This document shows positions 4,439-20,778 of a stretch of DNA of 64,000 nucleotides, in pieces. Source of the stretch: a plasmid; the sequence record NZ_CP072388.1, one strand, 5' to 3'. The notes beneath the pieces were generated by a model. It had not been told where the DNA came from, searched no databases, and was given only the letters and a program-made list of their open reading frames with translations. Each line of letters begins with the position of its first letter. The stretch's first letter is position 1. The translations under genes and the position numbers were made by a program.

Positions 4439-5346
4439 ACAACGACCTGGCCCCGGCCGACCTGGACCACCTGCACGACAGCGCCCGGGCGCTGGCCCGG
4501 CTCCCGGCCGAGGAACGGGTCCGGCACGTGCGCGCGGACCGGTGGATCGGCTACTCCCGTGCCACCGCGGCCCTGGACCGCTTGGAGACGTTGTACGCGT
4601 GGCCCGGCCGGCAACGGATGCCCAACCTGTTGCTGGTCGGCCCGACGAACAACGGCAAGTCCATGATCATCGAGAAGTTCCGCCGCCTCCACCCGCCCAC
4701 CTCACACGCGGACCGGGAGGAGATCCCGGTCCTGGTCGTGCAGATGCCCTCCGAACCGTCGGTGATCCGGTTCTACGTCGCGCTGCTCGCCACGCTCGGG
4801 GCACCGCTACGCCCGCGTCAGCGCCTGGCCGACATGGAGCCGATGGCGTTGGCGCTGCTGCGAGCCGCGGGAGTACGCGTGCTGGTCATCGATGAGCTGC
4901 ACAACGTCCTCGCCGGGCGGTCCGACACCCGCCGGGAGTTCCTCAACCTCATCCGCTTCCTCGGCAACGAGCTGGGCATCCCGCTGGTTGGGGTCGGCAC
5001 CCGCGAGGCATACCTGGCCATCCGCTCCGACGACCAGCTCGAGAACCGCTTCGAACCCTTCACCCTGCCCCGGTGGGAACCCGACCAGGAGACACGGTCG
5101 CTGCTGGCCAGCTTCGCCGCCGCCTTCCCGCTGCGCCGCCGCTCGACCATCGCCACCGAGGAGATGACCCGCTACCTGCTGACCCGCAGCGAGGGCACCA
5201 TCGGCGAGCTCACCCACCTGCTCGTCGACGCCGCCGTGGCCGCGATCGAGTCCGGCGAGGAGGCCATCAACCAACGCGCCCTCCTCATGGCGCCCTACGC
5301 CGGCCCCACGGAACGACGCCGGATGTTCGAACGCGAGCTCGCATGA
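4435..5346 (+). CDS. tniB: Transposition ATPase TniB (AAA+)
   Basis: GTG start overlaps tniA stop (GTGA). Walker A GPTNNGKS; DHLHDSARALARLPAEERVRHVRADRWIGY typical of TniB. Confidence 0.9.
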   Translation: MNNDLAPADLDHLHDSARALARLPAEERVRHVRADRWIGYSRATAALDRLETLYAWPGRQRMPNLLLVGPTNNGKSMIIEKFRRLHPPTSHADREEIPVLVVQMPSEPSVIRFYVALLATLGAPLRPRQRLADMEPMALALLRAAGVRVLVIDELHNVLAGRSDTRREFLNLIRFLGNELGIPLVGVGTREAYLAIRSDDQLENRFEPFTLPRWEPDQETRSLLASFAAAFPLRRRSTIATEEMTRYLLTRSEGTIGELTHLLVDAAVAAIESGEEAINQRALLMAPYAGPTERRRMFERELA

Positions 5347-6641
5347 CCCGTCGATGGCCGCTGCACCCGCCACCGGGCGACGGAGAGGCGCTGTCCTCCT
5401 GGCTCAACCGACTGGCCGAGATCTACGGGCTCAGCGTCGAGGAACTGATCCGGCACGACCTTCTCCCGCCGGGCGCCGACCCGATAATCTACGACGGCGG
5501 TGCCCTGGACCTGGACCCGCCACCCGGAGTGCTCACCGCCCTCCACCGGCGCACCGGAGTGCCCCTGGGCGAGCTGCGCCAGATGACGATCGCCGGCTGG
5601 GCGCCCTGGCTCCTCGACACCCTGGACGTCGAACCGGAGGCCGGGGCGGCGCTCGACACCTACCTCCACCAGGACTCGGTGCTCCTCACCGCCAAGGAAC
5701 GCCCCCGCCGGCAGGTGCCCGGCTGGCGCGCCTGGCTGCCCTCGGACCTCAGACGCGAACCGATTCGCCGGGCCTGCCCGACCTGCCTGAGCACCACCAC
5801 GGCCGGCACCCCCGGCTTCACCCTGGTCTCCCAGTTGCCGCTCACGCTCAGCTGCTCGCAGCACGGCTGCCGCCTCGAACCCGCCTTCGGCGCCCTCGGC
5901 GGCTTCGTCGCCTGGGCGAAGCAGGACACGAATGCCACCGCCGCACCGGTCCCGGTCGTCGCCATGGACGCGCTCACCCACGAAGGTCTGCACACCGGCC
6001 TCGTCACCCTGCCCCGCCGCCGAGTGCACGTCGGGATGTGGTTCCGTCTCCTACGCACCCTGATCGACGAGCTCTCCACCCCCGTCTCGATGCTGCGCGT
6101 CCGTTCCCGGCACACCATGCAGCACCTCTGGCACGTGACCGGTCATCCGCCGCGGGCCGGCATGGCGGGCCCCTGGCGCCCCTACGAGGCGCTGCCGTGG
6201 CCGCAGCAGCGAATGCTCCTCGAGGCCGCCGCCACCACCCTGCAACTGGTCGAGGCCGGCGACGTGACCGCCCACGGCACCCTCGGCCATCTCCTGACCC
6301 CCGAGCCCTACCGGCCCGTTCCCGACGGCAGCACACCGCCCCAGCGCCGCCGTGACCACTGGCAGGAGATCAAGGACGAGATGAACCGAGCCATCGCCCG
6401 CGCCCAGCGCGACCCCGCCGCCGCCCGCCAGCTGCTGGCCACTCTCACCGCCCTGACCCGCAGCGAGACCACATTCCGGCGCACCCGCGAGGACCTGGTC
6501 GCCCTCGGCGTCCCCGAACGCCACCTCCCACGAACCCGGGACGATGTGCACGCCCGTGACGCTCCACCCGTCCAAGAGTGCGCGCTCGTCACATCCGAAG
6601 CGACGGCACCTTTGCACGACGTAGAATACGTGACCGGTTAA
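5343..6641 (+). CDS. tniQ: TniQ transposition targeting protein
   Basis: ATG overlaps tniB stop (ATGA). MTRRWPLHPPPGDGEALSSWLNRLAEIYGL typical TniQ N-terminus with zinc-finger cysteines (C..C...C..C). Confidence 0.8.
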   Translation: MTRRWPLHPPPGDGEALSSWLNRLAEIYGLSVEELIRHDLLPPGADPIIYDGGALDLDPPPGVLTALHRRTGVPLGELRQMTIAGWAPWLLDTLDVEPEAGAALDTYLHQDSVLLTAKERPRRQVPGWRAWLPSDLRREPIRRACPTCLSTTTAGTPGFTLVSQLPLTLSCSQHGCRLEPAFGALGGFVAWAKQDTNATAAPVPVVAMDALTHEGLHTGLVTLPRRRVHVGMWFRLLRTLIDELSTPVSMLRVRSRHTMQHLWHVTGHPPRAGMAGPWRPYEALPWPQQRMLLEAAATTLQLVEAGDVTAHGTLGHLLTPEPYRPVPDGSTPPQRRRDHWQEIKDEMNRAIARAQRDPAAARQLLATLTALTRSETTFRRTREDLVALGVPERHLPRTRDDVHARDAPPVQECALVTSEATAPLHDVEYVTG

Positions 6642-6719
6642 GTGACACATCTCCTCCGGAGAATCCTCCGGATGCGGACTGTCACGTAATCGGTCGAATA
6701 AGTGATGGAGGTGACGGCG
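6642..6719. promoter_or_regulatory. Probable res (resolution) region between tniQ and tniR
   Basis: Only non-coding gap in the tni module. Contains short dyads (tcctccgga/gaatcctccgga, tgtcacgtaat). Position matches res of the Tn402 family. Confidence 0.35.
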
Positions 6720-7334
6720 ATGCTCGTCGGATACATGCGTGTCTCGAAGGCCGACGGGTCCCAGACCACCGACCTGCAACGCGACGCCCTCCTCGCCGCC
6801 GGCGTCGAGCCCGACGCCCTGTACGAGGACAAGGCCTCCGGCAAGAAGGACGACCGCCCCCACCTCGCCGCCTGCCTGAAGGCCCTTCGCGCCGGCGACA
6901 CCCTGGTGGTCTGGAAGCTCGACCGCCTCGGCCGCGACCTGCGCCACCTGGTGAACATCGTCCACGACCTCACCCAGCGCGGCATCGGCCTGAAGGTCCT
7001 CACCGGCCAGGGCGCCGCCATCGACACCACCACCGCCTCCGGCAAGCTCGTCTTCGGCATCTTCGCCGCCCTGGCCGAGTTCGAGCGTGAGCTCATCTCC
7101 GAACGCACCATCGCCGGCCTGGCCGCCGCCCGCGCCCGCGGCCGCAAAGGCGGACGCCCCTACAAGATGACCCCCGCCAAGCTCCGCCTCGCCATGGCCT
7201 CCATGGGACAACCCGACACCAACGTCACCGACCTGTGCAAGGAGCTCGGTATCACGCGCCAGACCCTGTACCGGCACGTGTCTCCCACCGGGGAGCTACG
7301 TCCCGACGGGCGAAAGGTCCTCCCCGGCAACTGA
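6720..7334 (+). CDS. tniR: Serine recombinase / resolvase TniR
   Basis: MLVGYMRVSKADGSQTTDLQRDAL with catalytic Ser, C-terminal HTH. RBS ggaggtg upstream of ATG 6720. Confidence 0.85.
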   Translation: MLVGYMRVSKADGSQTTDLQRDALLAAGVEPDALYEDKASGKKDDRPHLAACLKALRAGDTLVVWKLDRLGRDLRHLVNIVHDLTQRGIGLKVLTGQGAAIDTTTASGKLVFGIFAALAEFERELISERTIAGLAAARARGRKGGRPYKMTPAKLRLAMASMGQPDTNVTDLCKELGITRQTLYRHVSPTGELRPDGRKVLPGN

Positions 7335-7464
7335 ACCGGCCGGCCCAGCGGCTGGTAGGCGGACACCAGCTGTGCCCTTCGTTGTCATCCCTGGTCGACT
7401 CGCCCGGGCGCGCGGCGATCGATGCCAGTCCTACACGAAGTCAAGTTCTGATAGTTTCTGCCAC

Positions 7465-7854
7465 TTAGAGGTAGCGGCAGACCTGGTCTGGGGCGCAGGT
7501 GGCGGGGTCGGCGGTGGTGGCTGTGTCCCGCAGCTCCGCGACGGTCTGGCGCAGTGCCTGCAGATCGGCGATCTGCCGGTCGAGGTCGACCACGCGGGTG
7601 CTGAGCAGGCCGGCGACGTGTGCGCACGGGGCCTCGCCGGCGTCGCGGATGGCCAGGATCTGGCGCAGCTGGGCGAGGCTGAGCCCCGCGGTGCGGCCGC
7701 GGCGGATGAAGTCCAGCCGGCCCATCACGTCCTGGCCGTAGTCGCGGTACCCGCCCGCGGTGCGCTCTGGCGTGGGGAGCAGCCCCTGGTCCTCGTAGAA
7801 GCGCAGCGTCTTCGTCGTCGTCCCGGCCGCCGCCGCGACCTCACCGATCCGCAT
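7465..7854 (-). CDS. merR: MerR-family metal-responsive regulator (mercury MerR-like, 3 conserved Cys)
   Basis: MRIGEVAAAAGTTTKTLRFYEDQGLL HTH. Cys at ~77, 120, 126 like MerR C79/C114/C123. Divergent from merA. Confidence 0.8.
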   Translation of the reverse strand: MRIGEVAAAAGTTTKTLRFYEDQGLLPTPERTAGGYRDYGQDVMGRLDFIRRGRTAGLSLAQLRQILAIRDAGEAPCAHVAGLLSTRVVDLDRQIADLQALRQTVAELRDTATTADPATCAPDQVCRYL

Positions 7855-7881
7855 CCATCTCTCCTTCGTGTGCCGCCGGAC

Positions 7882-7914
7882 TTGACCTTCCCCTGCACTG
7901 GAAGGTCCAGTCTG
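7882..7914. promoter_or_regulatory. mer operator/promoter: -35 TTGACC with 8-bp dyad gaccttcc-N8-ggaaggtc in the spacer
   Basis: Perfect dyad between the -35 and -10 elements in the merR/merA divergent intergenic region. This is classic MerR operator geometry. Confidence 0.5.
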
Positions 7915-7955
7915 GTCCTGTCGCCACCTCGGCGGCAACGAGCGGGAGGGATCAG

Positions 7956-9389
7956 ATGGGACACACCGAGGTCGACCTCGCGGTCATCGGTTCGGGTGGC
8001 GGCGCCTTCGCGGCCGCGATCGCGGCGACCAACCTGGGCAAGCGGGTCCTCATGGTGGAGCGGTCGACGATCGGGGGGACGTGCGTGAACACCGGCTGCA
8101 TCCCCTCCAAGGCGCTGATCGCCGCGGCCGAGGCCCACCACGTGGCGCTGGACTCGGGCCGGTTCCCCGGCATCGCCACGTCCGCCGCCCGTGCGGACAT
8201 GTCCGGGCTGGTCGGCGGCAAGCGGGCGCTGGTGGAGACCATGCGGGCGGAGAAGTACGTCGACCTGGCCGCCGAGTACGGCTGGGAGCTGCGCCAAGGC
8301 GACGCCACCTTCGCCGCCACGGCGGACGAGCCGCTGCTCGAGGTGACCGGTCCGGACGGCACGGTCGAGACGGTGCGCGCCGCGCACTACCTCGTGGCCA
8401 CCGGCTCCACGCCGTGGGCGCCGCCCATCGCCGGGCTCGAGACCATCGACTACCTGACCTCGACGACGGCGATGGAGCTCGATGAGGTGCCCGACACGCT
8501 CCTGGTCCTCGGCGGCGGCTACGTCGCACTGGAACAGGCCCAGCTCTTCGCGCGGCTCGGCTCGCAGGTCACCATGCTGGTCCGCTCCCGCCTGGCCTCC
8601 GGGGAGGAGCCCGAGGTCTCCAAGGCGCTGCTCGGGGTGTTCGCCGACGAGGGCATCCGGGTCGTGCGCCGGGCGACCGTCTCGGCCCTGCGCACCGACG
8701 ACGCCACCGGCGAGGTGGTCGCGACCGCCACGGTCTCGGGCGGGGTCGAGGAGTTCCGCGCCGCCAAGGTGCTGGTCGCGACGGGCCGTCGCCCCGTCAC
8801 CGACGGACTGAACCTGGACGCCGTGGGCGTGAGCACCGGCGAGCTGGGCGAGGTCATCGTCAACGGCCACCTGGCCAGCACCAACCCCCGAATCTGGGCG
8901 GCCGGGGACGTCACCGGGCACCGGGAGTTCGTCTACGTCGCCGCCTCCCACGGCACCCTCGTGGTCGAGACCGCCTTCGCCGGCGCCGGCCGGGAGGTCG
9001 ACTACCGCCACCTGCCCCGGGTGGTGTTCACCAGCCCCGCCGTCGGTGCGGTGGGGATGACCGAGCGGGAGGTCGTGGCCGCCGGGATTCCGTGCGACTG
9101 CCGCGTGCTGCCGCTGGAGTACGTCCCCCGCGCCCTGGTCAACCGGGACACCCGTGGCTTCGTCAAGGTCGTCGCCCACGCGCACACCGGGCAGATCCTT
9201 GGCCTGACCGCGGTCGCCAAGGACGCCGGCGAGCTGGCCGCCGCCGGCGTGTACCTCCTCGAAGCCGGCATGACCGTCGACCAGGTCGCCCACATGTGGG
9301 CGCCCTACCTGACCATGGCCGAGGGCATCAAGCTCGCCTGCCAGTCCTTCACCACCGACGTCTCCAAGCTCTCCTGCTGCGCCGCCTGA
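7956..9389 (+). CDS. merA: Mercuric reductase MerA (core enzyme, no N-terminal HMA domain)
   Basis: GGTCVNTGCIPSK redox-active disulfide, FAD/NAD Rossmann motifs, C-terminal vicinal Cys pair (KLSCCAA). Confidence 0.9.
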   Translation: MGHTEVDLAVIGSGGGAFAAAIAATNLGKRVLMVERSTIGGTCVNTGCIPSKALIAAAEAHHVALDSGRFPGIATSAARADMSGLVGGKRALVETMRAEKYVDLAAEYGWELRQGDATFAATADEPLLEVTGPDGTVETVRAAHYLVATGSTPWAPPIAGLETIDYLTSTTAMELDEVPDTLLVLGGGYVALEQAQLFARLGSQVTMLVRSRLASGEEPEVSKALLGVFADEGIRVVRRATVSALRTDDATGEVVATATVSGGVEEFRAAKVLVATGRRPVTDGLNLDAVGVSTGELGEVIVNGHLASTNPRIWAAGDVTGHREFVYVAASHGTLVVETAFAGAGREVDYRHLPRVVFTSPAVGAVGMTEREVVAAGIPCDCRVLPLEYVPRALVNRDTRGFVKVVAHAHTGQILGLTAVAKDAGELAAAGVYLLEAGMTVDQVAHMWAPYLTMAEGIKLACQSFTTDVSKLSCCAA

Positions 9390-9435
9390 CCACAACCGCC
9401 GCAGACCCGCGGCACCAATAGGAAGGGATTTCCCC

Positions 9436-10110
9436 GTGAACGATGAAACCAAAACCCTCACCGAGCGACTGGCCACACAGGACTCCGGCCTGGAGACCTG
9501 GCTCTGGCTGCCGCTGCTCCGCCTCCTCGCCTCCGGCGCCCCGGTCGAAGTCGCCGACCTGGCGGCTGCCACCGGCCGGCCGGCCGAGGAGGTCCGCCAG
9601 GCGCTGGCCGCTGTTCCCGACACCGAGTACGACGAGGACGGGCGCATCGTGGGTCTCGGACTGACCCTGCGGCCGACCCGCCACCACTTCGCTGTCGACG
9701 GCCGGCAGCTGTACACCTGGTGCGCGCTGGACACCCTGATCTTCCCTGCGCTCCTCGACAAAGCGGTGACGATCGAATCGCTCTCCCCGACGACGCGGAC
9801 CCCGGTGCGGGTGCACGCCGGGCCGGACGGAGTCACCAAGGTGGAGCCGCCCACCGCGGTGGTCTCCCTGGTCAACCACCCCGCCGACATGTCCTCGGTG
9901 CGTTCGGCGTTCTGCAACCAGGTCCACTACTTCGCCTCCGCCGAGGACGCCCGGCCCTGGCTCGAGAGGCACCCCGACGCCGAGGTAACTGCCGTCAAGG
10001 ACGCCTACCGGCTCGCCCTCGCCATGACCACGAACATGCTCGACGAGCACACCCCGGTCGGCCACGACATCCCCCGCGACACCACCGGCCAAAACTCCCG
10101 GTGCTGCTGA
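9436..10110 (+). CDS. merB: Organomercurial lyase MerB
   Basis: WCALDTL (Cys/Asp) and AFCNQVHYF (Cys) correspond to the MerB catalytic C96/D99/C159 triad. Confidence 0.85.
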   Translation: MNDETKTLTERLATQDSGLETWLWLPLLRLLASGAPVEVADLAAATGRPAEEVRQALAAVPDTEYDEDGRIVGLGLTLRPTRHHFAVDGRQLYTWCALDTLIFPALLDKAVTIESLSPTTRTPVRVHAGPDGVTKVEPPTAVVSLVNHPADMSSVRSAFCNQVHYFASAEDARPWLERHPDAEVTAVKDAYRLALAMTTNMLDEHTPVGHDIPRDTTGQNSRCC

Positions 10111-10122
10111 GCTGCTGCCACC

Positions 10123-10154
10123 CGGGGCCGGGGCCGGGGCCGGCCCCGGCCCCC
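10123..10154 (+). terminator. GC hairpin formed by a (GGGGCC)n / (GGCCCC)n palindrome after merB
   Basis: cggggccggggccggggccggccccggccccc immediately follows the merB stop. A stable stem is evident but there is no T-tract. Confidence 0.4.
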
Positions 10155-10339
10155 AGCGAGGAGAGGGACCTGCGCTCTCTTCGACGGAAGAACGGGACCC
10201 GGAAATCCCTCCTCGGCACTGCTGCGCCGGGCCGGCCGCACCGCGCCGGAAGTTGGACCGGTTGCGCGCGGGCCGCGGGCCAGGGAAGGCGCGGTGCGGA
10301 TCGCCAGCGCCGGCACAACGCCCTGCTCGTGACCATCGG

Positions 10340-11689
10340 CTACAGCTCGAGGCGCTGGAGGGCCTGGAGGTAGCCCTCGTTGTAGGTGGGGAACTGGGCG
10401 ACCTGGTCCAGGAGCCGGTCCACCGGTATCTGCTCACGGACGGCCAGCGCGGCGGTGTGGATCCACTCACTGGCCTGGGGGCCGAGCGCCCAGGCGCCGA
10501 CGAGCACCCGGCGGTCGCGGTCGGCGAGCACACCCAGGTGCCCGCGCGGGTCGCGTTCGTAGGTCCACGGCCTAGCGATCGCGTCAGCGAGGTCGACCTC
10601 CGTGGACGCCACCGGCAGGCCCCGGTCCCGGGCCTGCCGGCTGGTCATCCCCACCGCGGCGATCTCCGGGTCGGCGAACACCACCCGGGGGATGCCGTCG
10701 TACCGGGCCGTGCGCGACCTGCCCAGGATGTTGTCAGCCACCACACGGGCCTGGTACTTCGCGACGTGCGTGAACAGCATGACGCCGGTGACGTCTCCCA
10801 GTCCCCAGACGCCGGCGCCCGCGTGGCACTTATCGTCGACGACGAGCTCGCCTCTCTCGCCGACCTGCACCCCGACCGTGTCCAGCCCGAGGTCGGCGGT
10901 GCGTGGGCGCCGCCCGGCGCCCACGACGATGACATCGCAACGCACCTCGCCGCCCCCGTCGACTTCCACCACCGTGTCCTGGCCTTCGCGCCGGACCCGG
11001 GCGGCGGTGGCACCGGTGCGCACGTCGATGCCCTCATCCCTGACGTACCGCTCGGTGAGTTCTCCGACGCGCGGGTCCTCCCGAGGCAACAGCCGCTCAG
11101 TCTGTTCGAGGATGGTGACCTCGGCGCCGTACCGGTGCAGGAACAGGCTCAGCTCCACGCCGACGGCGCTGCCGCCGACGATCACCACGCGGTCGGGAAT
11201 CTCGGTCAGCGTGGTGGCCTCGCGGTTCGTCCACACCGGCGCCTGGTCCAGCCCCTCGATGGGCGGGACGACGGGATCGGACCCGGTGGCGACGACGATG
11301 TGCTCGGCCGTCAGCCGCTGCCCTTCGACATCCACCGAGCCCGGAGCGGTGATCCGGGCGGCGCCCTTGATTACGGTGGCGCCGGACTTCTCGTAGCCGC
11401 TGACCTGCTTGCTGTCATCGAGGTGGCGGATCATGTAGTCGCGGTAGTCGCGCGTGGCCGGCCAGTCCAGCCCGGCACCGTCCACCCCCGCGGCCCGGTC
11501 GACTCCGCCCTTGGCCTCCGGAGGGCGCAACACCGTCTTGGAGGGGATGCATGCCCAGTACGCGCACTCCCCACCGATGAGCTCACGTTCAACGACGGCG
11601 ACCCGCTTGCCCGCCTCCAGCAGCTTGCTGGCAACCACCTCACCCCCCGGGCCCATCCCGATGACAATGGCATCAAATCGATCATCCAT
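10340..11689 (-). CDS. Class-I pyridine nucleotide-disulfide oxidoreductase (MerA-like / dihydrolipoamide dehydrogenase family)
   Basis: GGECAYWACIPSK CxxxxC redox centre, two Rossmann motifs (GMGPGG, GGSAVG), dimerisation domain. No C-terminal CC pair. Confidence 0.75.
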   Translation of the reverse strand: MDDRFDAIVIGMGPGGEVVASKLLEAGKRVAVVERELIGGECAYWACIPSKTVLRPPEAKGGVDRAAGVDGAGLDWPATRDYRDYMIRHLDDSKQVSGYEKSGATVIKGAARITAPGSVDVEGQRLTAEHIVVATGSDPVVPPIEGLDQAPVWTNREATTLTEIPDRVVIVGGSAVGVELSLFLHRYGAEVTILEQTERLLPREDPRVGELTERYVRDEGIDVRTGATAARVRREGQDTVVEVDGGGEVRCDVIVVGAGRRPRTADLGLDTVGVQVGERGELVVDDKCHAGAGVWGLGDVTGVMLFTHVAKYQARVVADNILGRSRTARYDGIPRVVFADPEIAAVGMTSRQARDRGLPVASTEVDLADAIARPWTYERDPRGHLGVLADRDRRVLVGAWALGPQASEWIHTAALAVREQIPVDRLLDQVAQFPTYNEGYLQALQRLEL

Positions 11690-12093
11690 CCGTTGACCTC
11701 CTCTTCAGGGGTGGCGACGTGCACCGACTCAACGGCCGGCTGCACAACGGCCCACCCTCGCACCAGCCGTCTGAAACGGTGAGCGTAAGACGCGCTAGGC
11801 CATCAGGCCCATCAGGCCTACACGTGCACCGATGGCTTCGGCCGGCGGCACCCGGCCGGCATAGGCGCAGCCGTCGTCGACACCCGAGCGGGGGAAGTGG
11901 GCCCTCTGGCGGACTTCTCCGCTGGCCATCACGTGGTGGGCGTGCGCAAGGCACTCAAGACGGAGGATGGCGAGGTCGGTCCCGAGAGAAGAGAAGCCAG
12001 AGCCCGCCAGGTGCCCCAATGACCTGCCCTGGACCCCAGTATCGCCGCTAGTGGGGCCGGGCCAGCCGATCCTGAAGTCAACTTCGGACATCC

Positions 12094-12118
12094 GTGCAGG
12101 CGACTCCGAACATTGACA
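12094..12118. repeat. Transposon terminal inverted repeat (IRi side): gtgcaggcgactccgaacattgaca
   Basis: Reverse complement matches the left IR at 17/25. Ends ...GAACATTGACA, compare Tn5053 ...GAAAATGACA. Confidence 0.55.
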
Positions 12119-12146
12119 GCGACCGCCTCGACACGCCGAGACAACA

Positions 12147-12206
12147 TGTCGCAGAACTAGTGTCCGGAAACCCCCGGTGTCGCAGAACGCGGTCCGGGGG
12201 TTTTCG
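12147..12206. promoter_or_regulatory. res-like site upstream of resolvase: 2x TGTCGCAGAAC direct repeats interleaved with ccggaaaccccc / gggggttttcg inverted arms
   Basis: Seen directly in sequence, 15-75 nt upstream of the serine recombinase start. The arrangement is typical of Tn3-family res subsites. Confidence 0.45.
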
Positions 12207-12220
12207 CTACCGTCGCGGCC

Positions 12221-12802
12221 ATGGCACACGTCTACGGGTATGCCCGGGTCTCCACCACGGCGCAGAACCTCGACGCCCAGGTCGACGCCCTCACCGGCAC
12301 CGGCGGCGTCGACGAGCGCGACGTCGTCGTGGAAAAGGCCTCCGGGCGCCGTGAGGACCGGCCCGAGCTCGCCCGACTGCTCGCCGGGCTACGCGAGGGA
12401 GACACGCTCGTCGTGACGAAGCTCGACAGGCTCGGCCGCTCGGCCGCGCACGTCGCACGCCTCGTGCGCGACCTCGACGACCGCGGCGTCACGCTCCGGT
12501 CGCTGTCGGAGACGATCGACACCTCGAGCGCGACCGGGCGGCTCATGGTGCACGTACTCGCCGCCGTCGCGCAGATGGAAGCCGACCTCGCCCGCGAACG
12601 CACCCTCGACGGCCTCGCGGCCGCGCGCGCCCGGGGCAGGGTCGGCGGCCGCCCGAGCGTCATGACGCCGGACCGTGTCGCGGCCGCGCGCGTAGCGCTG
12701 GCCGGCGGCCAGTCACGCGCGGCCGTCGCGCGCGCACTCGGTGTCTCCCGAGACACCCTGTACCGCCACCTCGCCACGATCACGGCTGGGGGTGCCTCAT
12801 GA
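12221..12802 (+). CDS. Serine recombinase (resolvase/invertase family)
   Basis: MAHVYGYARVSTTAQNLDAQ catalytic Ser motif, C-terminal HTH (SRDTLYRHL). Confidence 0.85.
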   Translation: MAHVYGYARVSTTAQNLDAQVDALTGTGGVDERDVVVEKASGRREDRPELARLLAGLREGDTLVVTKLDRLGRSAAHVARLVRDLDDRGVTLRSLSETIDTSSATGRLMVHVLAAVAQMEADLARERTLDGLAAARARGRVGGRPSVMTPDRVAAARVALAGGQSRAAVARALGVSRDTLYRHLATITAGGAS

Positions 12803-13974
12803 GCGATTCCGGTTCCGTCTTCGGCCCTGGGCCGCGTCACGATGCCTCGCCGGCCTCGCACCGGGAGTCCTCAGCTCAGTTCCTCGAGCGCGTCGCCGGG
12901 GACTACTGGCAGGCGGTGCGCGACCTCCTCGACGACTGGCTAGGCCGCGTGCCGCCACCGGAGCGGCGCGATCTGATGGGCCGCCTCCGGCGCGCAGAGG
13001 ACCACACCTTCCGGGCGGCGTTCCTCGAGCTCTACCTGCACGAGTCGCTGGTCCAGTCGGGCTTCGACGTGGAGTTTCATCCCGAGGTGCCGGGCGTCCG
13101 TCGACGGCCAGACTTCCTCGCCCTCTCCACGAGCTCGACGTTCTACCTCGAGGCGCGGTCGCCGAGCACGGCCACGAACAAGCGAGCGAGTGCCGGGCGG
13201 GTTGGTGACGTCCACGACGCGCTCAACAGGGTCGACAGCCCGAACTTCTGGCTCTGGATCGATGTCGAAGCAGAGGGCGGCCGACCTCTCGCCACCAAGG
13301 GTCTACGGGCACAGCTCGAGGGCTGGCTCGCAGGCCTCGACCCGGACAGCGAGACCTCCCACGAGGAGCTGCCGTCCTACCACTGGGAGCGGGAAGGTTG
13401 GCAGATCAGGTTCCGCGCCCTGCCCAAGAGTCCTGCCGCGCGGGGGAGCGGAACCGGGCTGCGTCCCCTCGCGGTCTACGGGGGAAGTCATGCGGAGTGG
13501 GTCGACGACGCCGGCGTGCTCAAGGACGCACTGTCCGACAAGGGCAACGCGTACGGATTACCGGAACACGGCCTCGTCGTCGCGATCGGGACCTCGTTCT
13601 TCTCGCGCGACGACTTCGGCGTCAAGAACGCGCTATACGGCCCCGAGCAATGGGTGCTTGATCGCGAGGGCCGCGAGTTCGTCGAGGTCACCAGGGGACC
13701 CGGTGGGTACTTCCATGCTGGCAACGGTCAGTGGGCGCACCAGCACGTGTCCGGGGTCTTGATCGTGAACAACCTCCACCACTGCGGGATCCCCCAGCAG
13801 AGACCGACCTTCTGGGCCAACCCACAAGCGAGCCGCGAGGTGGTGGCGCTAGATGCCTGGGACGTCGTCGCGTTGCGCGACGGTCACCTCGAGCGAACGC
13901 ACGCCGCCGTCGGCCACCGTGAGCTCTTCCAGCTTCCCGAACCGTGGCCCCCGGGCGAGGCGTTCCCGAAGTAG
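12799..13974 (+). CDS. Hypothetical protein, possible PD-(D/E)xK-like nuclease fold (uncharacterised)
   Basis: ATG overlaps resolvase stop (ATGA). Motif E..PDFLAL...YLEAR resembles a degenerate PD-(D/E)xK. No other recognisable domain. Confidence 0.45.
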   Translation: MSDSGSVFGPGPRHDASPASHRESSAQFLERVAGDYWQAVRDLLDDWLGRVPPPERRDLMGRLRRAEDHTFRAAFLELYLHESLVQSGFDVEFHPEVPGVRRRPDFLALSTSSTFYLEARSPSTATNKRASAGRVGDVHDALNRVDSPNFWLWIDVEAEGGRPLATKGLRAQLEGWLAGLDPDSETSHEELPSYHWEREGWQIRFRALPKSPAARGSGTGLRPLAVYGGSHAEWVDDAGVLKDALSDKGNAYGLPEHGLVVAIGTSFFSRDDFGVKNALYGPEQWVLDREGREFVEVTRGPGGYFHAGNGQWAHQHVSGVLIVNNLHHCGIPQQRPTFWANPQASREVVALDAWDVVALRDGHLERTHAAVGHRELFQLPEPWPPGEAFPK

Positions 13975-13984
13975 GGTCCTCGCC

Positions 13985-14236
13985 GTGGTGTACCCGTCGC
14001 GTCCCGTGCTCGAGGTGTTGCCGCAGTTCCGCGGTGACCTCAAGAACGGCTACAACCGATTCCAGCGCGACAGGTTCGACCGGTTCGTGGCCGAGCAGTA
14101 CGTCGCGGGGCGGTCGCTGCGCGAGATCGGGGAGCTGACCGGGCGCACGCAGACGGCCGTGCGCGCCAGCCTCGACCGCACGGGCACGCCGCGGCGCGGA
14201 CGGGGTGCGCAGCGCGTGTCCGAGGGGGCCCGGTGA
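13985..14236 (+). CDS. Small HTH-containing protein (start uncertain)
   Basis: RSLREIGELTGRTQTAVRASLDR helix-turn-helix. Stop overlaps the next gene start (ATGA). Confidence 0.35.
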   Translation: MVYPSRPVLEVLPQFRGDLKNGYNRFQRDRFDRFVAEQYVAGRSLREIGELTGRTQTAVRASLDRTGTPRRGRGAQRVSEGAR

Positions 14237-14703
14237 CGGCGAGCGGGATGACCTCGTCGCAGCTCGCGGCGGAGTTCGGGGTGACGCGCGCGGCGGTGAA
14301 CAAGGTGTTGCGTTCGACGTACGGCCCGGCCGAGGGCGCTCGGCGGCTCCTCAACGATCAGCAGGTGGCCGAGGTGCGCGCACACTTCGCCGCGGTCGCG
14401 GCACGGCGCGCCGCCCGTGAGCAGCCGCGCACGTGCGTGGTCGAGGAGTGCGAGCGGCCGGGGATCGGCGAGCGCGGGTGGTGCACGTCGCACCGGGAGC
14501 GGTGGCGCCGGGCGGGCACGTTCGAGGCCGGCAGGCCAGGCGCGAACCAGCTCGCCAAGACGCACTGCCCCCAGGGGCACGAGTACTCGCCCGAGAACAC
14601 GTTCTCGTACCCCTCGGAGCCCGGGCGGCGGCGCTGCTTCACCTGCCGGCACGGACGCCCACCCGAGCCCGCCGACAGCACGCCGGAGGCGCCTGCCGGT
14701 TGA
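14233..14703 (+). CDS. HTH + HNH-type zinc-ribbon DNA-binding protein (actinophage-like)
   Basis: N-terminal HTH (SSQLAAEFGVTRAAVNKVL). CVVEECERPGIGERGWCTSHRERWRRAG plus a second C/H cluster. A paralog lies at 60279-60605. Confidence 0.55.
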   Translation: MTASGMTSSQLAAEFGVTRAAVNKVLRSTYGPAEGARRLLNDQQVAEVRAHFAAVAARRAAREQPRTCVVEECERPGIGERGWCTSHRERWRRAGTFEAGRPGANQLAKTHCPQGHEYSPENTFSYPSEPGRRRCFTCRHGRPPEPADSTPEAPAG

Positions 14704-14775
14704 CGGCCTGAACGCGCGGGCGCGCGGGAGGGTGCCGGCGAGGCGTGAGGTCGCGGGCCGGGTGATCGTGAGGGT

Positions 14776-15018
14776 GTGGGCGTCTCCTTGCCGCTGTCAC
14801 CGTCGGTCGCGGTCGCGGTCGCGGTCGCGCTGGCTCGGGCGGTGGAGCCTGACCCGGAGCTGGTGCGCGCGCTGGTGCAGGCGTGTGCGACGGCGTGCGC
14901 GGCGTGCGGGGCTGAGTGTGAGCAACACGCGCAGATGCACGAGCACTGCGCGGTGTGTGCGCGGGCGTGCCGGTCATGCGAAGAGGCGTGCCGGACGCTG
15001 CTGGCCGCGCCGGGATGA
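14776..15018 (+). CDS. Cys-rich four-helix-bundle copper-binding protein (DUF326 repeats), short form or N-terminally truncated
   Basis: ACATACAACGAECEQHAQMHEHCAVCARACRSCEEAC matches the DUF326 CxxxC repeat pattern. In-frame stop at 14746 limits the N-terminus. Confidence 0.5.
   Translation: MGVSLPLSPSVAVAVAVALARAVEPDPELVRALVQACATACAACGAECEQHAQMHEHCAVCARACRSCEEACRTLLAAPG
14805..14828. repeat. (GGTCGC)4 hexanucleotide tandem repeat inside the DUF326 ORF
   Basis: Encodes the VAVAVAVA tract. Potential slippage site. Confidence 0.5.
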
Positions 15019-15256
15019 GCCCCGTAGAGAGCGGTCCGGCACGCTGGCAGGTACGAAGGCAAGAGTACGGAAGTCCGTCGGGCGACACCTTGGCGGGCGA
15101 GGCCTGGCGGCGCACTGCACGGTCATGTGAAGCCGACGCCCCGCCTGTCTGTGTCGCGGACTCGCTTCACGAGCGAGTCGGGGTAGCGGTCTGGGTGACG
15201 CCAGCAAGGGTGCTTCTCCTGGACGTTCATCCGATCGTGCTTTCATCCACGCGGGG

Positions 15257-16508
15257 CTAGGGCGTGTCTCCCAATGCGTTCGCGGCGTCGCTCGCGGTCT
15301 CTAGGCTTGCCGCCATGGGTCTGAAGCGGTGGTTCGCAGAGCGCCGAGCACGACGGTTGGCGACGCTCCCGGGCGATTGTCCCGAGTGTGGGCATCGTTG
15401 GGACGAGCATGCGGGGTCGGGCAACGACTGCGACGGGGTGTGCGGTGAGTGTGCGTACGAGCTCGAGCACGGTCGGCGGATTTCGGACGCTCCCCTGTGT
15501 CGACGGCAGTGGGTGCGGTCAGCGCAGGGCGCGAGTCCAGATGAGGCAGGCCGATAGAACGACAGCAGCGCGGTAGGTGATGGCGAGCTTGTCGTACCGG
15601 GTGGCGAGTCCGCGCCATTGCTTGGTATGCGCGAAGGAGCGTTCGACGATGTTGCGTTGCTTGTACAGCTCGGCGTCGAGGGCGGGTGGCCGCCCGCCGG
15701 CTGAGCCCTTGTGCAGGCGGGCCGCGGCGGAGTCCTTCTTCTCGGGGACGACGGCCTTGATCCCACGGGCGCGCAAGTGCTTTCGGATCGGACCGGTCGC
15801 ATACGCCCGGTCTGCCAGGACGGCGTCAGGAGTGGTGCGCGGACGGCCCGGCCCGAGCCGCGGGACCCGGATGTCGGCGAGCACCTCGACCAGCATGGCG
15901 CCGTCGTTGCGCTGTCCGCCAGTGATGACCACCGCCAGCGGGCGCCCGCGCCCGTCGACGGCATGATGGATCTTGGAAGTCAGCCCGCCGCGCGAGCGTC
16001 CTATGCCGTGACCTGCAGGTTCACGCTTGCCGCCGAGCGAGCTGTAGACGAACCCGATAGGCGGGCCCGTGTGATTCGCTCCTGCCCCCTGTGTCCTGAT
16101 CAGGGCGCGTCGTGTTCGTCGCGTGCTGGTGGGCGCGGTTGATCGTGGCGTCCACGCTCACGGTCCAGTCGATCTTCCCTTCGGCGTCCGCAGCCGCCAG
16201 AAGCGCAGCCAGAACCATGTCCCACGTGCCATCGTCGGCGTACCGGCGGTGTCGCTTCCAGACCGTCTTCCAAGACCCGAAGTGCTCCCGAGGCAGGTCT
16301 CGCCACGGGATTCCGGTCCGATACCGGTAGATGATCCCCTCGACCACCTTCCGGTTGTCCCAGAAGGGATGCCCACGCCGGCCCAAGCTCGACGGCAGCA
16401 GCGGCTCAATCTGCTCCCACTGCGCATCCGTCAGCGACTGAAACCAGGACGACGTCACTCGCTGAGCATGCCCCGCCTCTGCTCACGGATATGGGAGACA
16501 CGCCCTAG
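15257..16508 (-). mobile_element. IS5-family insertion sequence (IS427-group-like), 1252 bp including CTAG ends
   Basis: Perfect terminal IRs (ctagggcgtgtctccca at 15257-15273 with reverse complement at 16492-16508). Flanking CTAG (or TA) direct duplication. Two-frame transposase inside. Confidence 0.8.
15519..16458 (-). CDS. IS427-group transposase OrfA/OrfB (two frames, probable -1 frameshift near 16035-16070)
   Basis: OrfA: LTDAQWEQIEPLLP...GIIYRYRTGIPWRDLPREHFGSWKTVWKRHRRY. OrfB frame reads GGLTSKIHHAVDGRGRPLAVVITGGQRNDG...YKQRNIVERSFAHTKQWRGLATRYDK (DDE_Tnp_1_2). Confidence 0.8.
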
Positions 16509-17125
16509 GGCGTCTGACAGCTTCGCAGAGCGGTGCCGGTGAAGTCCGGGACGGGACGTGTGTCAGCTTGTTCGGAGGTGGTGGCGAGGCCGTTCTCCTC
16601 GATGTCAGTGATGAGCCAGTCCATCTCGGCGATCTCGCGCTTCTGAGCCTCGCTGATCTCCACCGCGAGCTCGCACACCCGGACATCCGAGATCTGTGCG
16701 CGTTCCGAGCGGGTGATGGCCAAGGAGTGGTGCGGGATCATCGCCCGCATGAACGCGGTGTCGCCGACGGTGATCTGGCTGCGGTCCAGTGCCGCGCCGC
16801 CCACCAGCAGGACGAGGCTCGCCGCGACGATCGCGATGTTGGCCTTGGTGTTCTTGTACATGTTGAGCATCCAGCCGAGCATGATCAGCCCCATGGTGCC
16901 GCCCATGGTGACGGCCATGAAGACCCGGCTTTGGCTGAAGCGGACGTGGCCCCACTCCCAGGAGCCGACGAACATCACCCAGTACATGACCACCATTGCG
17001 GTGAGGATCATCGCCGCGAACCGCAGGTACATGCCGCGCATCTGGCGTGCGTGTTGGTCGTCCTGCTTTGGCTCCTGCGAGTGCTGCTGATCGTTCTGAG
17101 CGTTGGCATCGTGCCGAGCATCCAT
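16505..17125 (-). CDS. DUF305-domain protein (copper-resistance associated)
   Basis: FMRAMIPHHSLAI and REIAEMDWLI motifs. Stop codon TAG lies inside the IS target duplication. Confidence 0.7.
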   Translation of the reverse strand: MDARHDANAQNDQQHSQEPKQDDQHARQMRGMYLRFAAMILTAMVVMYWVMFVGSWEWGHVRFSQSRVFMAVTMGGTMGLIMLGWMLNMYKNTKANIAIVAASLVLLVGGAALDRSQITVGDTAFMRAMIPHHSLAITRSERAQISDVRVCELAVEISEAQKREIAEMDWLITDIEENGLATTSEQADTRPVPDFTGTALRSCQTP

Positions 17126-17502
17126 CGAAGGGCACCTCCTTGTACGTCACGACGCAGGTTCCGGTCGTGCCGGGCTCCGTCTGAAGCGCGTGGTCGGTCC
17201 TACGGTTCATGTAGCAACCCGTCCTGGGCAGCAGGGACCCTCGACGCTACGAGCCGCTTCTGGTACTCGCAGCCAGGCAACGCTGGCCGACGCTATTTCG
17301 TAGGCTCGGTGGTTGGGGGGCGGTGCGTGACGGCGTGTGCGGGGCCATGCGTGAAGATGGAGGCACGAGTCCAGCATGGTGTGCGTGCAAGCACGACGGG
17401 TGCGCGATGAAGCATGCCGGGCGGTGCTCACCGTGCTGGGATCAGGGGCGGAGGAGCCCGGTCGTGGAACTTCTCCGGAGCGGTGGTTAGGCTTACGCGG
17501 AC

Positions 17503-17946
17503 ATGCATCTGATGGCCGCTTTCCGTTCGCTGCTCGCTGGGCGCCGGCGAGGATTTTCGGGTGCCCTGCTGATCGCCGCGCTGCTGCTGGGTGTCGTGAC
17601 GATGCATGCGATGAGTGGGTCGCCCAACGCCCACTTCGGGCCGGCGGCAGCGATCATGTCCAGCGCGGATCACGACGCGGCGGCCCCCATCCACTCCCAC
17701 GACTTGGCGGCTCAGGGGACGAGCGAGAACCACGAGCAGGGCGGCTGCGTCGACTGCGGCGGGCACGAGATGGCATCGGCCATGTGTCTGATGGTCTTGG
17801 TCGTGCTGCTCGCCTTTGCCCGGCCCGGCACCGGCCTCCTGGCGCGCCTGGCCCCCGTGTGGTCACGCCTCCTCGAGCCGGGCCGGGCGCGTCCTCACTA
17901 CGGCTCCGCGCCGTCGCTGCATCTTCTCGGGATCTCTCGGACGTAG
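17503..17946 (+). CDS. Small His/Cys-rich membrane protein, DUF6153-like (start uncertain)
   Basis: N-terminal TM helix then HxxxH...HSHD...GGCVDCGGHE pattern. Sits between two DUF305 genes. Confidence 0.35.
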   Translation: MHLMAAFRSLLAGRRRGFSGALLIAALLLGVVTMHAMSGSPNAHFGPAAAIMSSADHDAAAPIHSHDLAAQGTSENHEQGGCVDCGGHEMASAMCLMVLVVLLAFARPGTGLLARLAPVWSRLLEPGRARPHYGSAPSLHLLGISRT

Positions 17947-18040
17947 GAACCGCACGCCGTCGACGCTTCCGCGTCGACCGTTTCGCCCCCTTCCAGGGGC
18001 GCGTGTGGTTGCTGAGTACCGAGTTGAGAGGTCCATTCCC

Positions 18041-18670
18041 ATGAAACTGAAGCGTGTGCTTGCGCCAGCGATCGCGCTGGTGACCGTCGTGAGTCTCGCG
18101 GCGTGCTCGAACGACGACGACCCCGGGAACGGGATGGCGTCGATGACTCCCATGGCGGAGGCCCAGGAGCGTGAGCGCTCGGGTGAGGGCGACGTGTTCA
18201 ATCAGCAGGACATGATGTTCGCCCAGATGATGGTTCCCCACCACGAGCAGGCGATCGAGATGTCCGACGTCATCTTGGCCAAGGACGGCGTGGACGCCCA
18301 GATCACGGGCCTGGCGAACCAGATCAAGGACGCACAGGGGCCCGAGATCGAGCAGCTGAATACCTGGCTTGAGGAGTGGGGCTCGCCGATGCCCGAGTCC
18401 GACTCGATGGATCACGAGTCCATGGGCCACGGGTCCATGGACGGGATGATGAGCGAAGAGGACATGCAGGCCCTGCAGGACGCGCAGGGTGCCGAGGCAG
18501 GGCGGCTGTTCCTCGAGCAGATGATCGTTCACCACCAGGGTGCCATCGAGATGGCGCAGACCGAGGTGGACGATGGCAAGCACGAGGACGCTGTCGCGAT
18601 GGCGCAGCAGATCGTCGAGACCCAGCAGGACGAGATCTCCACCATGGAAGACCTGCTCGCCTCGATGTGA
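18041..18670 (+). CDS. DUF305-domain lipoprotein
   Basis: Lipobox LAAC. Two MMVPHHEQAIEM / MIVHHQGAIEM repeats. RBS gagagg upstream of ATG 18041. Confidence 0.8.
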   Translation: MKLKRVLAPAIALVTVVSLAACSNDDDPGNGMASMTPMAEAQERERSGEGDVFNQQDMMFAQMMVPHHEQAIEMSDVILAKDGVDAQITGLANQIKDAQGPEIEQLNTWLEEWGSPMPESDSMDHESMGHGSMDGMMSEEDMQALQDAQGAEAGRLFLEQMIVHHQGAIEMAQTEVDDGKHEDAVAMAQQIVETQQDEISTMEDLLASM

Positions 18671-18734
18671 TCCCTCCCCGCGGGGGTGCGCGTGGCTGCG
18701 CACGCCCGCGGGCCCTTGCCGAAGGACTGCCTTG

Positions 18735-19673
18735 ATGAACCCTGCCCTGATGAGGTGGGGGAGCGGGTGGGTAGCAGCGGGAACCGTGCTGCTGTTGGCT
18801 GCCTGCACCTCCACGCCACCGCCGACGCCTACCGTCACGACGCTGGCGACCCAGGACCTGCCGGACTTTGGACACGTGCACGACGTTCAGGTCACCCAGG
18901 CCGATCACACCATCTTGATCGCGACCCATACCGGGGTCTGGACCATCACCGACCCGTTCCACGACGAGCCCGGACAGCTCGAGCGGGCCGGCGAGGGCCG
19001 CCAGGACACGATGGGCATGACGGTCGCCGTCGACGGCACCGTCTACGCCTCTGGCCACCCCGCACCCGGGGAGCAGTCGGACCTCAAGACGCCCAACCTC
19101 GGGCTGATCCGCAGCACCGACGGTGCCGCGACCTGGGAGCAGGTCTCCCTCACCGGCGAAGTCGACTTCCACGCGTTGAGCACCGCGACGACCGGTGGCG
19201 GCGCCGTGCGCGTCGTCGGTCTGGACTCGGCTACCTCACGACTGCTGATCAGCGACGACTCCGGGCGAAGCTGGACGCCTGGCGCAACCGTGGAGGCCCG
19301 CGACGTGCACGTCATGGGCGCCGCCCCGGACACCATCGTGGCCACCACACCGGCGGGACTGCAGCTCAGCCGTGACGGTGGGCGGACCTTCACCGTGGAT
19401 CGGGATGCGCCGGTCCTGGCGCTCGTTGATGCCGGGCTGGGCGGGACGCTGGTCGGGATCGACCCCCAGGGCGTCGTCTGGACCGGCTCACCCGGCTCGC
19501 AGGACTGGACCGAGCACGGCACCACGCCCAGCGGTGTCCAGGCCATGACGTACGTGCCCGACGACAGCCCCGGCAACCAGCCGTGGATTCTCGTCGCCAC
19601 GGACACCGGCCTGTTCACCAGCCGTGATCTGGGTGCCAGCTGGGATCCGGTGCTCGGCCAGGAGTCCGGGTGA
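18735..19673 (+). CDS. BNR/Asp-box beta-propeller lipoprotein
   Basis: Lipobox LAAC. Four Asp-boxes (STDGAATW, SDDSGRSW, SRDGGRTF, SRDLGASW). Confidence 0.7.
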   Translation: MNPALMRWGSGWVAAGTVLLLAACTSTPPPTPTVTTLATQDLPDFGHVHDVQVTQADHTILIATHTGVWTITDPFHDEPGQLERAGEGRQDTMGMTVAVDGTVYASGHPAPGEQSDLKTPNLGLIRSTDGAATWEQVSLTGEVDFHALSTATTGGGAVRVVGLDSATSRLLISDDSGRSWTPGATVEARDVHVMGAAPDTIVATTPAGLQLSRDGGRTFTVDRDAPVLALVDAGLGGTLVGIDPQGVVWTGSPGSQDWTEHGTTPSGVQAMTYVPDDSPGNQPWILVATDTGLFTSRDLGASWDPVLGQESG

Positions 19674-19986
19674 CGCCCGGCCCGCCCGAACACCACGCGC
19701 CCGACGCACAAGACCACACCAGCCGCCCCGCCCCGACCGTGCCCGCACGGCCGGGCCCCAGGGGCATTCAAACTCCTCGCGGAACGACCCGTGAGGGATC
19801 CAAGGGGGCGCCGAGCCCTGTCACCTCTTGGAGCACACCACCAACACCCGTGACAGGGACGGGGGAACCACTCAACCGGGCACCACGGTGCCCTCGGGGT
19901 GAAGCCGCACCACAGCCACCGGCGCGGCCGGGTCACTCTCCGATCCGAACCCGACAGCTCACCCCGCAGGCGCGAAGGAGAACACC

Positions 19987-20778
19987 ATGACCGCAAGAAA
20001 CCCGGGACGTCACCGCGCGTCTCGCCGGCCCATCACGCCCCTGACCCCGATCGCGCGTGCCGCCCAGGAGGCAACGGCCAGCGCCGCCCGCAGGGGCGCC
20101 TTGCTCGCCGCCGGCTCTGGCCTGCTGGTCTCGGCATTCGCCGTACCAGCAAGCGCAGCACCGAGCACCGACCACCCCAAGGTGTCCGGCGCCGACCTGA
20201 GCGCACTGACCGAGCCGGCCCGCCAGGCGCTCAGCGCCGCACCGGCGATCACCGTCTCGGCCGACGCGTCGTTCGCGATCGAGCAGGCGCCGGTGACGGT
20301 CACCCCCGCACCGGAACCCGAGCCCGAGCCCGAGCCGGAGCCGGTGCGTCAGGAGCGCGCGACACGCAGCCAGGACCGCACGCCCACCCAGGCAGAGACC
20401 AGCACCGCGCAGGGGCAGACACCCGTCGCCGCCCCGCCGTCCGCAGCCGGCTCGAGCGTGGTCAGCGTCGCGATGCGCTACCTCGGCGTGCCCTACCAGT
20501 GGGGCGGAACCACCCCGGCCGGGTTCGACTGCTCCGGCTTCACGTCCTACGTCTACGCCCAGGTCGGCATCAACCTGCCCCGCACCTCCTCCGAGCAGCG
20601 GTACGCGGGCACCGTGATCTCCCGTGAGCAGGCACAACCCGGTGACCTGGTCTGGAGCCCGGGCCACATCGGCATCTACGCCGGGGACAACATGCAGGTC
20701 GAGGCTCCCTCGCCCGGCAAGACCGTCCGGTACGGGCCGATCTGGCAGTCCAACCCGACCTACATCCGCGTCGGATGA
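19987..20778 (+). CDS. NlpC/P60 (C40) peptidoglycan endopeptidase, secreted
   Basis: Signal peptide. GVPYQWGGTTPAGFDCSGFTSYVYAQ...GHIGIYAG catalytic Cys/His. (PE)n linker. Confidence 0.85.
   Translation: MTARNPGRHRASRRPITPLTPIARAAQEATASAARRGALLAAGSGLLVSAFAVPASAAPSTDHPKVSGADLSALTEPARQALSAAPAITVSADASFAIEQAPVTVTPAPEPEPEPEPEPVRQERATRSQDRTPTQAETSTAQGQTPVAAPPSAAGSSVVSVAMRYLGVPYQWGGTTPAGFDCSGFTSYVYAQVGINLPRTSSEQRYAGTVISREQAQPGDLVWSPGHIGIYAGDNMQVEAPSPGKTVRYGPIWQSNPTYIRVG
20311..20343. repeat. (CCCGAG)n tandem repeat encoding the PEPEPEPEPEP linker in the NlpC/P60 protein
   Basis: ccggaacccgagcccgagcccgagccggagccg. Confidence 0.5.

Follow-up and report, generated by a model that had tools for sequence, protein, structure and literature searches.

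A Tn5053/Tn402-family mercury transposon in the res-like region of a serine resolvase gene from a Cellulosimicrobium-like actinobacterium

The transposon and the gene next to it

We analysed a stretch of 64,000 nucleotides of sequence record NZ_CP072388.1 (the window), in which a mercury-resistance transposon lies directly upstream of a gene for a small serine recombinase. The transposon spans positions 2621-12118 (9.5 kb) and is a replicative element of the Tn5053/Tn402 family, the so-called res-site hunters. The recombinase gene, which we call the target resolvase, follows at 12221-12802. We place the element inside the res-like site of this gene, because the conserved block linked to the resolvase begins at 12119, the base right after the terminal inverted repeat (IR) of the transposon. 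The window has a high G+C content, and its nearest relatives in a genome scan with the resolvase protein, which returned 24 loci (loci and contigs are given L numbers here), are Cellulosimicrobium and Oerskovia genomes. The host is a Cellulosimicrobium-like actinobacterium, i.e. a member of the high-G+C Micrococcales, and contig JBJXVU010000012.1 (assembly GCA_046159675.1) is identical in sequence to the window.

The transposition genes lie on a single strand in the order tniA-tniB-tniQ-tniR (2696-7334, plus strand), as in the Tn5053/Tn402 family. The first, tniA (2696-4438), encodes a DDE/Mu-type transposase of 580 amino acids (aa) with Pfam matches to Mu-transpos_C, rve and HTH, and has a gene call in L026. 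It is followed by tniB (4432-5346), coding for an AAA+ regulator of 304 aa (Pfam TniB, E = 2.7e-78) and sharing ~77% nucleotide identity with the TniB genes of proteobacterial plasmids, and by tniQ (5343-6641), coding for a target-selection protein of 432 aa (Pfam TniQ, E = 2.1e-20; gene call). The element's own serine resolvase, encoded by tniR (6720-7334; 204 aa; Pfam Resolvase, E = 7.7e-46), is 46% identical to the target resolvase. Its res probably lies at about 6560-6719, upstream of tniR and overlapping the 3' end of tniQ, where we placed it from inverted motifs of the GTGAC/GTCAC type. These motifs differ from the TGTCGC motifs of the target res, and the two resolvases probably have different DNA specificities. 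The cargo consists of merR (7465-7854, minus strand), merA (7956-9389), merB (9436-10110) and a gene for a second pyridine-nucleotide-disulphide oxidoreductase of 449 aa (10340-11689, minus strand), all with Pfam matches and gene calls, followed by a 98-aa open reading frame (ORF) with no family match (11795-12091, minus strand). The mer module thus holds merB, and no transport genes of the merT/merP type were seen in it.

Both ends of the element carry 25-bp terminal repeats of the TGTC...GCAC type that characterizes the family, the one at the tni end (IRt) adjoining tniA. IRt (TGTCAGATCCCGAAGTCGCGTGCAC; 2621-2645, plus strand) lies 75 bp upstream of tniA and starts with TGTCAGATCC. The repeat at the cargo end (IRo, or IRi in integron nomenclature) occupies 12094-12118 on the minus strand. 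Its reverse complement reads TGTCAATGTTCGGAGTCGCCTGCAC, which was matched by none of 100 shuffles, and a second, subterminal repeat lies directly inside it, at about 12066-12090. IRt and IRo are identical at 18 of 25 positions, and each agrees at 17 of 25 with the IR of Tn402 and class 1 integrons (TGTCGTTTTCAGAAGACGGCTGCAC); the latter, at the start of a 78-nt stretch, was confirmed as 100% identical in at least 5000 plasmids. The initial annotation of this locus had ended IRi at 12118, and these matches bear it out.

A metagenome scan with TniA returned 72 related loci, although both ends of an element were present in only three of them; the scan with TniQ gave no match. Most of the 72 relatives have a TGTC...GCAC 25-mer ~75 bp upstream of tniA, as in the window. 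Two complete relatives (L049 and L053) show perfect 5-bp duplications (TCGGT and TCCCG, respectively) at their TGTC termini, which validates our definition of the ends. When the exact transposon was sought elsewhere through its TniA protein, it was carried by the source genome only.

The conserved region upstream of the resolvase gene

The target gene (12221-12802, plus strand) encodes a serine recombinase of the small resolvase/invertase type, with 193 aa, Pfam matches to Resolvase (E = 2.6e-43) and HTH_7, and the catalytic-serine motif YARVST in its translation. Orthologues with 72-95% identity were found in 15 loci and in two plasmids. About 20 Cellulosimicrobium/Oerskovia loci, including the plasmids pTL2A and pCPRO01, have the same res-like region immediately upstream of the recombinase gene, i.e. 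the two are co-inherited across replicons. The initial annotation had named a plasmid as a possible carrier of the resolvase, and the module is indeed found on both of these. In the close loci, the DNA is homologous to the window from a point at 12119-12143 up to the vicinity of the resolvase stop codon. Rightwards of 12118 the window has the conserved upstream sequence of the resolvase itself, which lies outside the transposon.

In the window this region is truncated (12119-12220, plus strand, or -102 to -1 relative to the ATG): the accessory part is kept and the crossover site is lost. It contains an inverted pair TCGACA...TGTCGC around a hypervariable 8-mer (12128-12152; GCGACA...TGTCGC in relatives). 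Then come two direct repeats TGTCGCAGAAC (12147-12157 and 12178-12188), putative accessory resolvase-binding sites that occur exactly twice within the 64 kb, with a spacing of 31 bp. A variant, TGTCCGGAAAC (12161-12171), stands head to tail between them at spacings of 14 and 17 bp. The second TGTCGCAGAAC copy is enclosed by a dyad with 13-bp arms, CGGAAACCCCCGG (12165-12177) and CCGGGGGTTTTCG (12194-12206), which are 92% complementary. The direct repeats and dyad arms at 12147-12206 and the recombinase gene at 12221 are thus where the initial annotation had put them. It had also placed a res-like site near the inner end of the transposon, 28 bp away; the site stands and the distance does not, since the conserved block begins at 12119 and the element lies within the site, at -102.

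The best evidence that the repeats are not a product of chance is their conservation, ahead of the shuffles. Sixteen loci with the resolvase or its orthologues have the TGTCGCAGAAC pair at the 31-bp spacing (two of these represent the source contig itself), as against none of the 72 loci that carry relatives of the transposon. In the 13-bp dyad, 92% of the cells are paired over 17 loci, with four changes on both sides, a level reached by none of 500 shuffles. The distribution of the repeat pair also bears on whether the resolvase gene and the repeats might be part of a larger transposon with its true end further to the right. Nothing beyond proximity favours this arrangement. The module occurs without tni genes in about 20 loci and the two plasmids, the repeats do not accompany TniA relatives, and the element has both its own tniR and a bona fide IR at 12094-12118. 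We consider a larger transposon refuted and give it practically no credence: the repeats lie outside the element, as the initial annotation had assumed.

Uninterrupted versions of the region show what the window has lost. Two Logan contigs, L028 and L029, encode an identical resolvase protein and share ~99.8% DNA identity with the window over 1.9-2.6 kb from -76 onwards, and they have ~45 extra conserved bp where the window has the transposon. The region is also uninterrupted in about ten further genomes and in plasmid pTL2A, so that the un-inserted context anticipated by the initial annotation does exist in related genomes and plasmids. When intact, the region covers about -150 to -10 relative to the ATG and contains a 28-bp dyad, TGTCGCAGAACCG-AC-CGTTTCTCGGACA, at -135 to -108, with a G+C-rich variable spacer to its right; the inverted pair GCGACA...TGTCGC around the hypervariable 8-mer (-92 to -69); head-to-tail motifs at -74, -60 and -43; and then the 13-bp dyad. 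We compared the alleles of the window, L027, L028 and L029 at -102 to -76 (12119-12145). In this interval the window and L028 differ at 7 of 26 positions, against ~0.2% divergence downstream (-76 through +2600), and L028 agrees with L008 leftwards of -93 and with the window rightwards of -76. Among all loci, the 8-mer at -83 to -76 is hypervariable. The local divergence may have arisen by gene conversion or at a second exchange point.

We strongly infer that the 28-bp dyad is the crossover site (site I), because the identity of the flanks between loci switches inside its 12-bp shared core. Plasmid pTL2A has two copies of the core AACCGACCGTTT, in direct orientation and 2.2 kb apart. To its left, the first copy shares at least 140 bp at 100% identity with the DNA left of res in L008 and L028, and the match to the chromosomal locus L008 is lost directly after CCGTTT. 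The res copy that adjoins the resolvase is identical to L008 from AAAACCGACCGTTT rightwards, with unrelated sequence to the left. Judging from sequence, such a switch within the shared core would be the signature of conservative site-specific recombination. On this reading, the TGTCGCAGAAC-type repeats, which stand head to tail, and the dyad, all within -92 to -10, would be putative accessory and/or autoregulatory binding sites. A palindrome, GGTTCTnCGAC/GTCGCAGAACC (-146 to -124), was tried as the crossover site and rejected; its left half is poorly conserved and the flank switch favours the overlapping 28-bp dyad. Searches of the window and of the 7 kb further left gave no crossover-site core. 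With no crossover site near the resolvase gene, the window copy of res should be unable to recombine.

Other replicons illustrate the variation of the module. Plasmid pCPRO01 has a more divergent resolvase orthologue, 2.4 kb from its rep gene, and keeps the core, a direct-repeat pair 14 bp apart and the GGGGGTTTTCGCTAC arm. On pTL2A (L103) the direct core copies (4600-4720 and 6860-7000) enclose a 2.2-kb segment with genes for a histidine kinase and a response regulator, and their flanks resemble reciprocal recombinants of the L008 arrangement. This pair of cores suggests that the resolvase module may excise or capture cassettes. In L018 the resolvase orthologue (9990-10180) has an internal deletion (about residues 5-32, catalytic serine included) and is truncated after about residue 91, and the res region upstream of it is intact; a similar site without a resolvase, at 3020-3100, provides an extra core copy in direct orientation.

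It is important to consider whether the repeats and the dyad are something other than res, either a promoter/operator or a 5'-leader hairpin, or else part of an inversion system of the Gin/Hin type, in which case the transposon simply landed in an intergenic region. The closest solved homologue of the target protein is the Gin invertase (E = 1.8e-42), ahead of gamma-delta resolvase (5.7e-33) and Sin (3e-17); the term resolvase is therefore a functional attribution for a protein that is nearer to Gin by sequence. The dyad also has a strong RNA fold (z-score -3.4) with four compensatory changes. The half-sites TGTCCGGAAACC and GTAGCGAAAACC may resemble the AAACC ends of hix/gix half-sites. However, neither the repeats nor the crossover core have an inverted partner within the 64 kb, and the second core copies in pTL2A and L018 are directly oriented. 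The flank switch at the 28-bp dyad corresponds to deletion or integration between directly oriented sites. An operator or leader hairpin is compatible with a res site, because the accessory sites of res commonly double as operators; scans of 11900-12400 for promoter and terminator consensus sequences gave no match. Finally, three or four independent transposon ends fall in one 30-bp spacer (see below), which argues for a structured protein-DNA target. We thus regard it as unlikely that the region is not a res site.

Insertion into res and the origin of the left flank

Relative to the intact region, the transposon entered at -102, 6 bp to the right of the 28-bp dyad and to the left of the accessory repeats. 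It is turned towards the resolvase gene with its cargo end, and IRo ends 102 bp upstream of the ATG. Elements of the Tn5053 family use the resolvase of the target and insert with IRo, the end away from tni, nearest to its gene, IRt being the tniA end; the insertions mostly fall within the resI-resII interval and generate 5-bp direct repeats, which are sometimes missing after secondary events (PMC7765201). The window agrees with these published insertions in both orientation and entry interval, the former being a comparison that the initial annotation had called for.

We conclude that a Tn5053/Tn402-family element most probably entered, by transposition, the res region of a small serine resolvase module that was already in place, one that circulates on plasmids and genomic islands of Cellulosimicrobium and Oerskovia. 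The tni module, the conserved upstream block, the uninterrupted loci and the orientation all support this proposal, which was that of the initial annotation. By analogy with published work on Tn5053 and Tn402, TniQ and TniB would have directed TniA to a res occupied by resolvase, and such targeting would account for the fixed orientation and for the position between site I and the accessory sites. The locus is a clear new example of a known behaviour and implies no new mechanism.

Besides the proximity of the target protein to Gin, several observations weigh against this conclusion. The pentamers flanking the element, GCAAG (2616-2620) and GCGAC (12119-12123), match at only 3 of 5 positions and are not a 5-bp direct repeat; since they differ, they fall short of demonstrating a single simple insertion. 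On its left the transposon is flanked by DNA unrelated to the res region, and a search of the window and of the 7 kb to its left gave no reciprocal junction, in which site I would adjoin IRt. Among the four complete delimited elements (that of the window and three metagenomic relatives), only two adjoin a resolvase gene.

The left flank consists of a remnant of another transposon. The 79 bp at 2540-2620 (plus strand) directly abut IRt and are the right end of a second element, here called TnB, without the last 5 bp (CCACA) of its terminal repeat. They are 87% identical to positions 9824-9901 of L004, where TnB is complete (3204-9908, 6.7 kb): the right terminal IR has a matching inverted copy at 3204. 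The terminal repeats are about 36 bp long and begin with TGTGGC. Between them lie arsR, cadD and merA as cargo, and genes for a serine resolvase, a Mu-type transposase of 466 aa and an AAA ATPase, with no room for tniQ. This gene set is Tn552-like, i.e. a Mu-type transposase, an AAA ATPase and a serine resolvase between inverted repeats, without TniQ. Sequences of the TnB type are found in L004 (3204-9908), L006 (6194-9927), L010 (about 9860-9908), L027 (1-105) and L012 (5833-9768). In L006, TnB is cut short directly upstream of its own resolvase gene, a truncation that might reflect recombination at the res of the element itself. Given this origin of the left flank, one simple insertion does not account for the present structure. 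The account of the initial annotation is thus refined in three respects: the element sits inside the site, no duplication survives, and the left flank is the stump of another res-hunting transposon.

Two simpler accounts of this flank were tried and rejected. The left-flank sequence GATAGAACCCCGCCATATAACGGCGCAAG, shared by the window, L004, L006 and L010, was considered as an alternative res allele, which would make L004 and L010 the empty site; its inverted copy at 3204 in L004 identified it as the terminal repeat of the separate 6.7-kb transposon. We also considered that the window derives from an L010-type junction by simple insertion with duplication of GCAAG. The right flank would then be expected to read GCAAGCCACAGCGACACG, and GCGACCGCCTCGACACG was observed.

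The missing 5-bp duplication, the transposon stump on the left, and the mosaic ancestry of the interval from -102 to -77, seen in the positions that differ from L028, are all compatible with a secondary adjacency: the element would have inserted elsewhere, and a deletion, inversion or homologous exchange would later have joined its cargo end to the resolvase region, without any targeting of res. Yet the break is at the very last base of the IR, where transposition would have to place it, and the orientation and the interval are those of the published preference. Another member of the family, the metagenomic relative L052, has a matching geometry, with IRo ~100 bp upstream of another resolvase gene and in the same orientation as in the window. 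A random insertion at most ~150 bp upstream of a resolvase gene in the right orientation would, by a rough estimate that assumes a handful of resolvase genes per genome of 4-5 Mb, have a probability of the order of 1e-4. We regard a secondary adjacency as very unlikely. As a separate observation, L052 (6700-6810 and 12213-12340) has two Tn402-like res hunters in tandem, the IRo of the first being 2 bp from the IRt of the next, and neither has a direct repeat.

If the element was targeted to res, as we favour, the most economical history would have two steps. First, the Tn5053-type element would have inserted at -102 of a res that was either intact or already occupied. Then, a rearrangement on the IRt side would have replaced the original left flank, probably an adjacent deletion by intramolecular transposition or a recombination between two copies of the transposon. 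Site I and the 5-bp duplication would have been lost in this step, and IRt would have come to lie against the Tn552-like stump.

The surroundings of the two modules are varied. A metal-resistance island makes up the entire left half of the window. Within 12799-14703, a 391-aa ORF with no Pfam or NCBIfam match starts at 12799 and overlaps the resolvase stop codon (ATGA); at other loci unrelated ORFs take its place. It is followed by an HTH_58 gene (13985-14236) and a 156-aa ORF, which are 72-83% conserved in L004-L008, and the region 3' of the resolvase has a conserved-variable-conserved layout. An IS5-type insertion sequence (within 15519-16458, minus strand; DUF4096 and DDE_Tnp_1) comes next, and beyond it lie genes for DUF305, DUF6153, an NlpC/P60 protein and a P-type ATPase (16505-23145). 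The housekeeping gene prfC (29635-31326) indicates that the window is of chromosomal location. None of the resolvases, TniQ, TniB or the downstream ORFs reached the cut-off of an NCBIfam family, and positions 12000-16000 were matched by no plasmid of PLSDB at the megablast level.

Res-site hunting in Micrococcales and in known systems

The spacer entered by the mercury transposon has also received Tn552-type ends, at least twice (at -92 and at about -76) and in both orientations. In L004, L010 and L027 (the last with a diverged end), TnB-type ends lie at -92, abutting the left edge of the inverted pair. In L006, the TnB end is at about -76, in the opposite orientation and next to the right arm of the pair. 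We tentatively propose, as a possibility that we consider rather less likely than its negation, that this actinobacterial res might serve two branches of the Tn7 superfamily, the TniQ-bearing Tn5053 type and the TniQ-less Tn552 type, as a common landing site, and that the module might also shuffle its left-hand neighbours through site-specific recombination, the two-component cassette of 2.2 kb between the direct cores of pTL2A being an example. If so, the feature recognised would be the architecture of the resolvase-DNA complex, e.g. a bent spacer separating crossover and accessory sites, rather than a specific contact between TniQ and the resolvase, and the module would act as a hub, both for the capture of transposons and for their movement between plasmids and chromosomes.

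In Proteobacteria, mercury transposons and class 1 integrons came to be carried by plasmids and Tn21-type transposons through res-site hunting. At this locus the behaviour, orientation rule and preferred interval alike, appears in a high-G+C Gram-positive lineage and at an unrelated resolvase/res module, while a Tn552-like element targets the same spacer in sister genomes. Micrococcales thus provide a natural series of intact sites, sites occupied by either type of transposon and a recombinant pair of sites. This series can be used to test what res hunters recognise and to annotate the metal-resistance islands of these bacteria.

The organization of the region recalls the res of Sin-type recombinases, which combines an inverted site I with a head-to-tail site II (PMC2428073). 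As in the res of Sin and the beta-recombinase, a dyad crossover site, a spacer and head-to-tail repeats ~14 bp apart lie upstream of the recombinase gene. The region is longer than that of Sin (about 125 bp versus 86 bp), with an extra repeat, the 13-bp dyad and the inverted GCGACA/TGTCGC pair. By the E values given above, Sin is no more than a distant relative of the protein, and the subsites are assigned by inference. As for TnB, it shares with Tn552 the gene set and the position in the res of a plasmid-type resolvase, Tn552 targeting the sin res site of staphylococcal plasmids (PMC3276174). Unlike Tn552, TnB is actinobacterial, carries arsR, cadD and merA instead of bla, has terminal repeats of about 36 bp instead of about 120 bp, and shows no evident direct repeat at its L004 copy.

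The closest counterparts of the mercury transposon are Tn5053, Tn502 and Tn402 of Proteobacteria. The window element differs from them in its actinobacterial host, in its IRs (17 of 25 positions shared with Tn402) and in having lost any 5-bp direct repeat. Its mer module is merR-merA-merB with an extra oxidoreductase; Tn5053 carries the transport genes merT/P/F, of which none was seen in the window element. Its target is an actinobacterial plasmid-type resolvase, not the ParA of IncP plasmids or the TnpR of the Tn21 group. What it shares with these elements is the tniA-tniB-tniQ-(res)-tniR module followed by mer cargo, the 25-bp TGTC...GCAC terminal repeats with an adjacent subterminal repeat, and an insertion that separates the crossover site from the accessory sites and turns the non-tni end towards the target resolvase gene.

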